Assembly (NCBI RefSeq): GCF_003334785.1
Contig: NZ_QOWV01000009.1
Strand: one strand, 5' to 3'
From: Escherichia coli
GTDB lineage: Bacteria > Pseudomonadota > Gammaproteobacteria > Enterobacterales > Enterobacteriaceae
Length of the DNA: 64,000 bases
Shown: positions 3,509 to 3,675 of the stretch, piece after piece
Layout of the letters: each line of letters opens with the position of its first letter
Numbering within the stretch: the stretch's first letter is position 1
Position numbers and translations under genes: made by a program
The notes under the pieces: model-generated
Databases searched by the model: none
What the model was told of the DNA's origin: nothing
What the model saw: only the letters and a program-made list of their open reading frames with translations

Positions 3509-3675
3509 CCACTCCTGCTATGCTTAAGAAATTATTCATAGACTCTAAATAATTCGAGTTGCAGGAAGGCGGCAAACGAGTGAAGCCCCAGGAGCTTACA
3601 TAAGTAAGTGACTGGGGTGAACGAATGCAGCCGCAGCACATGCAACTTGAAGTATGACGAGTATAGCAGGAGTGG
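3509..3675. repeat. ERIC/IRU-like intergenic repeat with 13-bp terminal inverted repeats
   Basis: Core gtgaagccccaggagcttacataagtaagtgactggggtgaacg (3580-3623) matches the two halves of the enterobacterial ERIC consensus (targets of the classic ERIC primers); flanked by the exact inverted repeat ccactcctgctat / atagcaggagtgg (3509-3521 and 3663-3675). Confidence 0.65.

Follow-up and report, generated by a model that had tools for sequence, protein, structure and literature searches.

Hairpins that sequester a Shine-Dalgarno (SD) sequence are well known, the rpoS leader being one example, and masking of the adhE ribosome-binding site is relieved by RNase III. ERIC repeats, also called IRUs, were reportedly described by Sharples & Lloyd in 1990 and by Hulton et al. 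in 1991. These repeats are treated as miniature inverted-repeat elements, and a TA motif has been described at their ends (PMC3184786). The Yersinia ERICs of De Gregorio et al. 2005, in the part relayed by PMC3184786, are co-transcribed and form a long intergenic RNA hairpin. For promoters of the extended -10 type that are read by sigma-S, the consensus KCTAYRCTTAA was given by Weber et al. 2005, as quoted in PMC5650638. Here we compare with these systems the spacer between dxs and yajO in a stretch of 64,000 nt of Escherichia coli DNA (the window). The ERIC in this spacer is itself ordinary; the host hairpin that surrounds it, with a candidate promoter nested inside, appears to be undescribed. 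Element limits, polymorphism, conservation and covariation of the hairpin, motif conservation and SD accessibility were computed or compared here, and sigma-S dependence, the Rho-dependent 3' end, the antisense RNA and the dsRNA are taken from the literature.

In the window, dxs occupies 1638-3500 on the + strand and ends in the stop codon TAA at 3498..3500 (open reading frame list and RefSeq annotation of identical K-12 DNA), and yajO follows on the same strand at 3680..4654 (324 aa, from ATG 3680). An earlier description made from the letters alone (the sequence-only reading) had pointed out that the longest yajO ORF opens within the repeat, as the ORF list confirms (GTG 3608), and had put the true start at ATG 3680. 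RefSeq gives that same ATG in ERIC-bearing, ERIC-less and long-ERIC genomes alike, and in 80 species, where the spacer leaves no room for the 3608 extension, tblastn alignments of YajO start at residue 1. By these sequence comparisons, the translation start of yajO is ATG 3680. The dxs-yajO spacer is mostly 54-75 nt long in these 80 Enterobacteriaceae species. We also considered a mini-ORF that would open at the invariant ATG 3520 and rejected it, as its length varied from 2 to 50 codons over 68 spacers, its frame relative to yajO changed and its stops were scattered; in the same 68 spacers we found no coding signal for it beyond the nucleotide motif.

To define the ERIC core we joined two primers, ERIC1R as its reverse complement and then ERIC2, into a 44-nt consensus; both primer sequences were confirmed in the literature (both occur in 246 papers). 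Its sole match in the 64 kb, with 0 expected, lies on the + strand at 3580-3623, where the sequence-only reading had seen an ERIC core; this primer region aligns at 42/44 positions, with 2 mismatches, and its inner core at 32/32. The element proper extends over 127 bp at 3539..3665 (+ strand), with ends TAGACTC...GAGTATA and a TA at both ends. ERIC copies at yafP-prfH and pgk-fbaA are 91-95% identical to it over exactly that span, and their flanking sequence is unrelated to the dxs-yajO locus. Folded alone, 3539-3665 reaches -56 kcal/mol (z = -9.2), its 25-nt arms forming an imperfect palindrome with 76% complementarity. E. coli genomes hold ERICs at a median of 11 places. At dxs-yajO the site is filled by a full-length match in 2844 of 5426 complete E. 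coli genomes and shows the empty-site junction in 2486 (~46%), with a clean 125-bp gap; a three-allele alignment likewise resolves into 125-bp presence or absence, and the ERIC-less alleles retain CCACTCCTGCTAT...ATGGCAGGAGTGG. The terminal TAs of the element lie at 3539-3540 and 3664-3665, their exact duplication being blurred by an A/G polymorphism at 3665. Outside E. coli, full-length ERIC is missing at this locus in about 75 of 80 Enterobacteriaceae species, and both flanking arms are present there.

The element at 3539-3665 thus shares with ERIC/IRU repeats its length, core, palindrome, strong fold, terminal TA, polymorphism and residence in a transcribed intergenic spacer, and is itself no different from them; the flanking 10-13 bp repeats lie outside it. 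As with the Yersinia ERICs, the element is co-transcribed and gives a long hairpin in the RNA between its neighbouring genes; published 5' ends and RNase III-derived dsRNA lie in or around it. Unlike those ERICs, as far as they are relayed in the source cited above, the dxs-yajO copy sits inside a pre-existing hairpin and by calculation leaves masking of the SD unchanged. The Rfam family RF02818, V_AS5 (Vibrio RNA AS5), can be aligned over its full length (1-129) to 3538-3661 (E = 1.2e-10). Its score of 52.5 falls short of the gathering score of 96, and the ERIC is therefore not a member of RF02818; given the full-length alignment, V_AS5 looks like a Vibrio ERIC-type repeat. For annotation, the limits of the ERIC at dxs-yajO should be 3539-3665, with yajO running from 3680.

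Around the ERIC lies a pair of inverted repeats, ccactcctgctat at 3509-3521 being the exact reverse complement of atagcaggagtgg at 3663-3675. It is the longest exact inverted repeat within 3400-3800 and grows to 16 nt at 94% identity in an inverted-repeat search; inverted repeats of 13 bp were reached in 0 of 300 dinucleotide-preserving shuffles of that interval. The exactness reported by the sequence-only reading is therefore real, and it is specific to this allele: G replaces A at 3665 in other E. coli alleles with the ERIC and in the allele without it, which gives a G.U pair in RNA. The same reading took 3509-3675 as a single ERIC/IRU-like mobile element, with the 13-bp repeats as its terminal inverted repeats. 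That an ERIC is present holds good, the repeats are exact, non-random and flank the ERIC core, and miniature inverted-repeat elements do possess terminal inverted repeats (PMC3184786). The repeats are not the ends of the element, however, as both arms remain in the 2486 ERIC-less E. coli genomes and in some 75 ERIC-less species, other ERIC copies lack the arms and any similarity beyond 3539-3665, and the real ERIC ends are TA(T/G)ACTC and GAGTATA. We give the single-element reading next to no credence, and it is already refuted by the sequences of the empty-site alleles. Since the arms are kept in ERIC-less E. coli and in other species, and ERICs elsewhere have unrelated flanks, the alignments identify the arms as those of an older, host-derived hairpin with the ERIC in its loop.

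The left arm of this host hairpin (3509..3521, + strand) contains the anti-Shine-Dalgarno CTCCT at 3512-3516. In the right arm (3663..3675, + strand), GCAGGAGTGG at 3666-3675 is host sequence, and only the inner ATA at 3663-3665 belongs to the ERIC end or the target TA. The right arm holds the yajO SD, AGGAG at 3668-3672, 7 nt ahead of the ATG, and this AGGAG is paired with CTCCT 3512-3516 with a P(unpaired) of 0.000. The first reading overlooked both that the right arm is the yajO SD with the left arm as its anti-SD and that a sigma-S -10 motif lies within the left arm. It had anticipated correctly that a transcript from the dxs side would form a long hairpin ahead of yajO: 3501-3700 folds into a single long hairpin of -81.5 kcal/mol (z = -7.4). 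Both arms were found in all 80 Enterobacteriaceae species loci, the left arm of E. albertii being one base off, and RNAalifold predicted the helix independently from 67 ERIC-less spacers (columns 6-14:49-57). Helix cells were paired in 86% of cases, versus 31-52% in slid controls. Double changes were seen at five helix pairs, with a covariation score reached in 0 of 500 shuffles; six core pairs are invariant, so that the covariation comes from three basal pairs and two weaker outer pairs. The three variable pairs show 37 G.U/U.G cells against 2 A.C/C.A, which argues that pairing acts in the sense-strand RNA and not as a DNA palindrome.

In four genera the host hairpin has a stability of about -27 to -30 kcal/mol. 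Opening the SD was calculated to cost 11.8-17.6 kcal/mol in read-through RNAs, which include the left arm, and 0.4-3.0 kcal/mol in RNAs from the predicted nested start; for the RNA of the window the values were 14.5-15.9 kcal/mol with the left arm and 2.1 without it. The ERIC has a small effect on this cost (15.9 versus 17.0 in the masked form, 2.1 versus 0.8 from the nested start). With its upstream CUCCU, its AGGAG near the start codon and a stable, conserved and covarying helix, the hairpin resembles known SD-sequestering hairpins. An RNA thermometer was considered and rejected, the helix being fully paired at 37 C at about -27 to -30 kcal/mol without the ERIC. The helix is followed by CAGCAUGCAA with no U tract, which does not make an intrinsic terminator, and a terminator scan of the + strand was empty. 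No Rfam family covered the hairpin in ERIC-bearing or ERIC-less spacers; matches to Hrs1, DicF and naRNA4 were weak and positioned away from it.

The candidate nested promoter of yajO, P2, is GCTATGCTTAA at 3517..3527 (+ strand), with a predicted transcription start at ~3531. It matches the sigma-S -10 consensus KCTAYRCTTAA at 11/11 positions, with TG at -15/-14 and C at -13, and is the sole match in the window. In 68 of 80 species the motif is exact, and the remaining 12 differ from it at a single base; the upstream TG is always present, and no further KCTAYRCTTAA occurred in the 629 kb of related loci that were scanned. P2 shares with sigma-S extended -10 promoters the full consensus and a downstream gene that is sigma-S-dependent in two genera; it differs in having no recognisable -35 and in that its motif also forms the top of an RNA helix. 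A two-hexamer promoter scan, which requires a -35 match, did not flag P2 and flagged only a site at the ERIC junction (3524-3553) that is missing from empty sites. Promoter constraints alone would also account for one part of the left arm, its TGC.

Published data show that yajO is sigma-S-dependent and uncoupled from dxs both in E. coli and in Salmonella, whose 56-nt dxs-yajO spacer is ERIC-less. In published tables for E. coli delta-rpoS, yajO is down ~2.8-fold (log2 12.1 to 10.6), and dxs, ispA and xseB are up; in the published Salmonella delta-rpoS table, yajO is down 10-fold (439 to 45, padj 1e-13), and dxs, ispA and xseB are unchanged. yajO is listed among sigma-S-regulated genes (PMC4447067), and sigma-S ChIP-seq and ChIP-chip signals have been published upstream of it. 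The narrow ChIP-seq peak at ~3571-3711 lies 50-190 bp downstream of the P2 motif and fits a minus-strand TGCTATACT, described below, at least equally well, ChIP not being strand-specific. The published K-12 5' ends of yajO are 3508, ~3586 and ~3640, with none at the predicted ~3531. P2 is accordingly presented as a candidate: conservation and consensus suggest that it may be an active yajO promoter that starts at ~3531.

Other RNA ends have been mapped nearby. An extended -10-like TGgCATAAT (P1; 3493..3501, + strand) overlaps the last dxs codons, and its geometry fits the 5' end at 3508, the yajO 5' UTR start of Adams et al. 2021, whose cloning primer JW10397 begins TCCACTCCTGCTATGCTTAAG, corresponding to window position 3508. 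As GCATAAT occurs in only ~26 of 80 species, we rejected P1 as a conserved yajO promoter; it may be active in E. coli. A fusion of the yajO 5'UTR and ORF from 3508 rose more than 2-fold in rhoR66S (Adams et al. 2021). The same authors report a Term-seq RNA 3' end, scored Rho-dependent (supplementary files 1 and 3), which we mapped through their printed 61-nt sequence, with a cross-check, to 3680 on the + strand, 5 nt past the base of the hairpin. A published transcription-unit table has the dxs units stop at dxs. The 5' ends at ~3586 and ~3640 (+ strand; Kim 2012 supplement, Cho 2014 Table S6) fall within the ERIC, and we found no sigma-70 or sigma-S motif upstream of either; Cho 2014 Table S6 enters 'found motif' as NF/NFE and sigma binding as DS. 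These two ends may be processing sites. An RNase III site given as '5' of yajO' (PMC5371410) was discarded: the supplements give only panE-yajQ, 'yajO' being a slip for yajQ.

We consider it probable, on balance, that the locus combines an SD-masking host hairpin, a nested sigma-S promoter and a nearly neutral ERIC passenger in the hairpin loop. The anti-SD CUCCUGC (3512-3518), soon after the dxs stop, would pair with GCAGGAG (3666-3672), so that RNAs with both arms, whether read-through from xseB-ispA-dxs or started at 3508, would have the yajO ribosome-binding site locked. Such untranslated yajO RNA would be exposed to Rho termination and trimmed back to the hairpin, which would then serve as the 3' end of dxs mRNA. 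A sigma-S-type extended -10, TGCTATGCTTAA, spans the left arm and the first part of the loop; nested transcripts, predicted to start ~7 nt downstream in the loop, would be free of the anti-SD and translatable, and yajO output would track sigma-S rather than dxs transcription. That this motif is an active promoter, where it starts and what follows for translation, we infer. In about half of E. coli, including the K-12-like window, the 127-bp ERIC has entered the loop at a TA on its 3' edge, and has since formed part of the 5' UTR of promoter-proximal mRNA. Because the ERIC folds on itself, it would stack on the host stem and leave SD masking essentially unchanged. Compared with known SD-sequestering hairpins, relief at yajO is proposed to come from promoter choice and not from an sRNA or a nuclease, the promoter lying inside the helix region and yielding an RNA without the anti-SD.

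A 3'-end function offers another account, in which the hairpin is mainly the terminal structure of the xseB-ispA-dxs mRNA (an exonuclease barrier or a processing stop after Rho) and its role at the SD is incidental, the SD being the only fixed sequence available for pairing. An abundant Term-seq 3' end just past the helix, listed dxs transcription units that end at dxs and the RNA-seq table of the p19 study, where yajO lies 20-30-fold lower than dxs if the columns are taken as read levels, favour it. A barrier could be built from any sequence, though, yet where the left arm is invariant it is exactly complementary to the SD, and spacers of every length have the helix end a few nt ahead of the ATG; we therefore think a primarily 3'-end function unlikely. 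A 3'-end role is compatible with the model of masking hairpin and nested promoter, and is partly contained in it. In the classical layout of translational coupling (phage MS2, ribosomal-protein operons), a stem near an upstream stop masks a downstream SD, and the SD-masking stem near the dxs stop resembles it. With the left arm starting 8 nt past the dxs stop in E. coli, ribosomes at the stop might melt it and make yajO translation proportional to that of dxs. Across species, however, the stop-to-CTCC distance is 11-22 nt, so that a terminating ribosome would reach at most 1-2 pairs of a helix whose stability is about -28 kcal/mol; deletion of rpoS also moves yajO and dxs mRNA in opposite directions, and Rho terminates inside yajO on hairpin-containing RNA. 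Geometry and helix stability led us to reject coupling by ribosome termination, which we rate as highly improbable.

The masked SD might instead be opened by a regulator, either an sRNA or protein acting on the conserved UAUGCUUAA or RNase III removing the anti-SD as in adhE, a precedent mentioned in PMC5371410. Conservation of UAUGCUUAA beyond the needs of pairing would fit, as would the RNase III dsRNA cluster at the locus, which ranks fourth in abundance among those over coding genes, and the two ERIC-internal 5' ends would give mRNAs with the SD freed (opening cost 5.3 and 2.3 kcal/mol). But the sigma-S -10 consensus fully accounts for the conservation of UAUGCUUAA, hairpins that lack the ERIC have 13-15 bp, a short substrate for RNase III, and the dsRNA cluster was ascribed by its authors to a sense/antisense duplex, which together make a dedicated regulator improbable. 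We know of no partner sRNA for the yajO hairpin. A function in DNA, with the inverted repeat as the operator of a dimeric regulator or as a cruciform, draws on the near-perfect DNA palindrome over a promoter-like motif; half-site spacing that differs by more than 20 bp between species, the strand asymmetry of substitutions noted above and the identity of the right half with the SD itself render it extremely improbable.

If the model of masking hairpin and nested promoter is true, a compact device of hairpin and promoter deliberately keeps YajO insulated from dxs expression and links it to the stationary-phase sigma factor. The locus would then be a clean, testable case in which the transcription start site decides translatability. 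It would also show that a palindromic mobile element can land in a regulatory RNA helix without breaking it, and it would be a simpler reading of the dsRNA cluster, the Rho-dependent 3' end, the sigma-S ChIP peak and the motif-less start-site calls. YajO has served as an alternative source of DXP, which is what Dxs, encoded upstream, produces. In metabolic engineering, the anti-SD would account for poor YajO yield from dxs-yajO constructs. More tentatively, and with somewhat less than even confidence, we propose 'promoter-coded translation', an arrangement conserved across Enterobacteriaceae in which a sigma-S promoter forms part of the anti-SD arm and the same DNA gives an untranslatable RNA by dxs read-through and a translatable one from sigma-S, together with entry of ERIC-type elements into the same loop-edge TA at least twice independently (Escherichia and the Phytobacter/Kosakonia group). 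Repeated loop-edge entry, if true, would suggest either targeting of hairpin loops by the elements or tolerance there of self-folding insertions only.

Insertion of the ERIC would have had side effects in K-12, the long helix probably supplying RNase sites and the junction creating an antisense -10. This -10, TGCTATACT at 3660..3668 on the - strand, is of the extended -10/sigma-S type and faces dxs, with a predicted start at ~3653-3655; it joins a host TGC to the ERIC end TATACT and is the sole copy in the window. Its position fits the published antisense transcript and the RNase III dsRNA cluster S-43 (~3461-3647), as well as an antisense 3' end at 3442 and the sigma-S ChIP-seq peak, and TGCTATACT may act as an antisense promoter in K-12.

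The dxs-yajO spacer had been described, in a sequence-only reading, as a single ERIC/IRU-like element (3509-3675) bounded by exact terminal inverted repeats. Within the (+) strand gene order xseB-ispA-dxs-yajO, the dxs stop codon TAA occupies 3498-3500, and we found that 3509-3521 (left arm) and 3663-3675 (right arm) are indeed exact reverse complements of 13 nt each. They form the longest exact inverted repeat within 3400-3800, and 0 of 300 dinucleotide-preserving shuffles of the region reached 13 bp. The 44-nt ERIC core consensus (reverse complement of primer ERIC1R plus primer ERIC2, with primer sequences checked against the literature) aligned at 3580-3623 with two mismatches, its sole match in the window. 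The long hairpin proposed upstream of yajO was likewise recovered, as RNA 3501-3700 was predicted to form a single long hairpin (-81.5 kcal/mol, z = -7.4).

The assignment of the 13-bp repeats as ERIC termini did not survive comparison. Searching 3401-3800 against 5426 complete E. coli genomes revealed two main alleles, with 2844 genomes matching near full length and the others at 69% query coverage in 275 bp versus 400. Alignment of K-12-like, O157:H7 and strain CT265 DNA showed a clean 125-bp presence/absence difference, and a 50-nt probe spanning the empty junction (...CCACTCCTGCTATGCTTAAGAAATTATTC|ATGGCAGGAGTGGCAGCATG) gave one match each in 2486 genomes. Since the empty-site allele retains both arms, the arms are present in the absence of ERIC. 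The best match to 3530-3670 in ERIC-less genomes lay at other loci and spanned only 3532/3533-3665 (91-94% identity), and alignment of the yafP-prfH and pgk-fbaA ERIC copies showed homology limited to 3539-3665, with unrelated flanks. These ERIC limits and the arm-retaining alleles refute a single element at 3509-3675. Aligned copies end in TA(T/G)ACTC...GAGTATA, and TA at both ends has been described for ERIC-type elements (PMC3184786). Judged by these alignments, the ERIC here is the classical 127-bp element with TA at each end, an ordinary copy within a well-known repeat family, and the ERIC end or target TA contributes only ATA (3663-3665) to the right 13-mer. Because position 3665 varies between A and G (G in the empty allele, the long allele and some short-ERIC alleles), the 13-bp exactness is allele-specific; with A a G.U pair becomes A-U, and the antisense hexamer reads TATACT versus CATACT.

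A YajO scan of species-representative genomes yielded 80 loci in Enterobacteriaceae, nearly all with a dxs-yajO spacer of 54-75 nt. The earlier proposal that yajO really starts at ATG 3680 was borne out: RefSeq places the start there whether a genome has ERIC, lacks it or has the long ERIC allele, and 80/80 orthologues align from residue 1. The longest yajO-frame ORF does begin within the repeat, at GTG 3608 (+) inside ERIC, and the resulting 24-codon extension is untenable because the 54-75 nt spacers are too short. A mini-ORF from ATG 3520 was also rejected, coding conservation being absent.

Across the 80 loci, [YR]CTCCTGCTATGCTTAA follows the dxs stop closely, AGCAGGAG[YR]GG lies immediately before the ATG, and RNAalifold independently predicted a helix between these blocks in 67 distinct ERIC-less spacers. 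For covariation we counted a 15-pair version of the helix, defined by us, over the same 67 spacers. Paired cells reached 86%, versus 31-52% with the 3' partner slid by 1-3 columns; five pairs changed on both sides, and 0/500 shuffles reached the covariation score. The signal comes from three pairs below the Shine-Dalgarno (SD) core: columns 6:57 (CG 45, UA 10, UG 8), 8:55 (GC 28, GU 26, AU 8, UA 2) and 7:56 (CG 60, plus UG 2, GU 1 and GC 1 as variant standard pairs). The six core pairs are invariant, hence uninformative on covariation. Variable pairs held 37 G.U-type versus 2 A.C-type cells, and this excess indicates that the arms pair as sense RNA, not as a DNA palindrome. A DNA operator is unlikely given the same counts and a half-site spacing that differs by >20 bp across loci. 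The right strand of the helix is the yajO SD, AGGAG (3668-3672), 7 nt upstream of ATG 3680, and the left strand is CUCCU. Without ERIC, the hairpins of E. coli O157, Enterobacter, Salmonella and Atlantibacter have folding energies of about -27 to -30 kcal/mol, match no Rfam family, and had no description in the literature searched; the hairpin is of a known kind, SD sequestration, and itself appears undescribed. We hold this anatomy, ERIC limits together with a host hairpin masking the SD, with high confidence. Between the dxs stop and the anti-SD, most genera also have a stretch rich in C and T (e.g. TCCCTCCCCTTTTCC; spacers L006-L083, equivalent to window 3501-3508), which adds CCUCC-like anti-SD copies and in many species lengthens the helix base by two pairs (UU with AA).

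We computed the cost of freeing AGGAG by partition-function folding. For K-12 it was 15.9 kcal/mol on read-through RNA from dxs, 14.5 on RNA from 3508 and 2.1 on RNA from a predicted nested start (3531). Read-through and nested-start costs were 17.0 and 0.8 kcal/mol in ERIC-less O157, and 11.8-17.6 and 0.4-3.0 kcal/mol in Salmonella, Enterobacter, Klebsiella and Atlantibacter. From these modeled costs, the hairpin should silence yajO translation on RNAs carrying the left arm and spare promoter-proximal RNA. ERIC hardly changes either cost (K-12 versus O157). Alone it folds on itself (-56 kcal/mol), and it stacks onto the host stem; its tolerance, with filled and empty alleles segregating in E. 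coli at about 52% to 46%, would follow from this self-folding and small effect on the SD.

The predicted nested start derives from GCTATGCTTAA at 3517-3527 (+), which matches at 11/11 positions the sigma-S -10 consensus that PMC5650638 quotes from Weber et al. 2005, KCTAYRCTTAA, with TG at -15/-14 and C at -13. This match is the sole one in the 64-kb window; the motif is exact in 68/80 species and one base off in 12/80, occurs nowhere else on either strand of 629 kb of fetched loci, and is conserved beyond what pairing requires. It predicts a start ~7 nt 3' of CTATGCT, within the loop and beyond the anti-SD. ERIC-bearing E. coli alleles show a G/C polymorphism at 3528, just 3' of the motif and near this start. 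Published data consistently show sigma-S-dependent transcription of yajO itself that is uncoupled from dxs: in E. coli delta-rpoS, yajO falls from log2 ~12.1 to ~10.6 whereas dxs, ispA and xseB increase (Cho 2014 Table S7), and in Salmonella 14028 delta-rpoS it falls from 439 to 45 (padj 1e-13) with dxs, ispA and xseB unchanged (PMC4014581). Both sigma-S and sigma-70 are located upstream of yajO in published ChIP-seq and ChIP-chip data. As the ERIC-less spacer of the Salmonella locus compared (S. enterica subsp. diarizonae, L020) is 56 nt, the nested motif is there the obvious candidate promoter. No yajO start at ~3531 is among published K-12 5' ends, and the sigma-S ChIP-seq peak lies nearer a minus-strand antisense element than the sense motif. 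We consider gating by a nested promoter an evenly balanced proposition.

Two reported K-12 5' ends of yajO, ~3586 and ~3640 (+), fall inside ERIC (Kim 2012, Cho 2014), have no sigma-70 or sigma-S motif per the source table, and may be RNase cleavage products or processing sites of a longer 5' UTR. In the ERIC fold, 3586 lies at the central stem base and ~3640 in an internal loop; the two do not face each other, as a simple staggered cut by RNase III would require. Among RNase III dsRNA clusters over coding genes, Huang et al. 2020 place the spacer (~3461-3647; S-43) fourth in abundance, and they infer a new antisense RNA beginning downstream of dxs. Host TGC and the ERIC end TATACT together form a sigma-S-type extended -10, TGCTATACT (3668-3660, (-) strand), with a predicted start at ~3653-3655, compatible with the right edge of the cluster, a published antisense 3' end at 3442 and the sigma-S ChIP-seq peak (~3571-3711). 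This candidate promoter can explain both the published antisense RNA (~3442-3655, (-) strand) and S-43. The empty allele reads TGCCATGAA here, so the promoter, if real, was made by ERIC insertion, and ERIC-less strains should then lack this antisense RNA and dsRNA cluster.

In Adams et al. 2021, an abundant, Rho-dependent RNA 3' end maps to the first base of the yajO ATG, 5 nt past the helix, and a yajO 5'UTR+ORF fusion (insert from 3508) rises >2-fold in rhoR66S, as would be expected from an untranslated, SD-masked leader. This also makes the dxs message end, in effect, at the hairpin, and listed dxs transcription units end at dxs. Acting purely as a 3'-end barrier would be compatible with the SD-masking model, yet leaves unexplained why the invariant left strand exactly complements the SD. 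Opening of the helix by ribosomes terminating at the dxs stop is unlikely, given a stop-to-CTCC distance of 11-22 nt and the opposite changes of dxs and yajO with rpoS. A factor acting in trans may open the helix, or RNase III may activate the RNA; the helix is too stable for an RNA thermometer. For text-mining, PMC5371410 is a trap: the main text puts a stabilising hairpin '5' of yajO' where yajQ is meant, and its supplements give only a panE-yajQ site and yajQ templates.

E. coli CT265 (L002:380-700) and E. albertii (L005 spacer) carry a long ERIC allele, the 127-bp element with a 78-bp insert (CAAATCCGCATGGAGCGGATTTGAACGCTGC...GGGCCGAATAAC) of several small hairpins at the equivalent of 3625/3626. 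The E. albertii version is nearly identical, base for base, to that of some E. coli, suggesting that the allele is old or has passed between the species. In spacers upstream of position 1501 of the fetched loci, ERIC-like elements also occupy the homologous TA directly 5' of AGCAGGAG in Phytobacter (L028, L031), Kosakonia sp. S29 (L038) and Enterobacteriaceae UBA3516 (L037). Their 69-78% identity to E. coli ERICs, which share 91-98% among themselves, points to a second, independent insertion into the same spot. Such repeated insertion at one loop TA, with the candidate nested sigma-S promoter, is of moderate interest. The L037 spacer retains ~25 nt of element ends, likely an internal deletion. 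The family naRNA4 is a REP-derived nucleoid-associated RNA, and a weak Rfam match to it 3' of Salmonella yajO (L020:2509-2545 (+), 30 bits versus gathering 59.5) probably marks a REP-type repeat between yajO and pgpA, a region in which the Salmonella RNA-seq table also has a small hypothetical gene, STM14_0498, that is sigma-S-dependent. Lastly, Rfam RF02818 V_AS5 ('Vibrio RNA AS5') aligns over its full length with 3538-3661 (E = 1.2e-10, score below gathering); the family has the look of an ERIC-type repeat of Vibrio and not of a gene dedicated to an antisense RNA.
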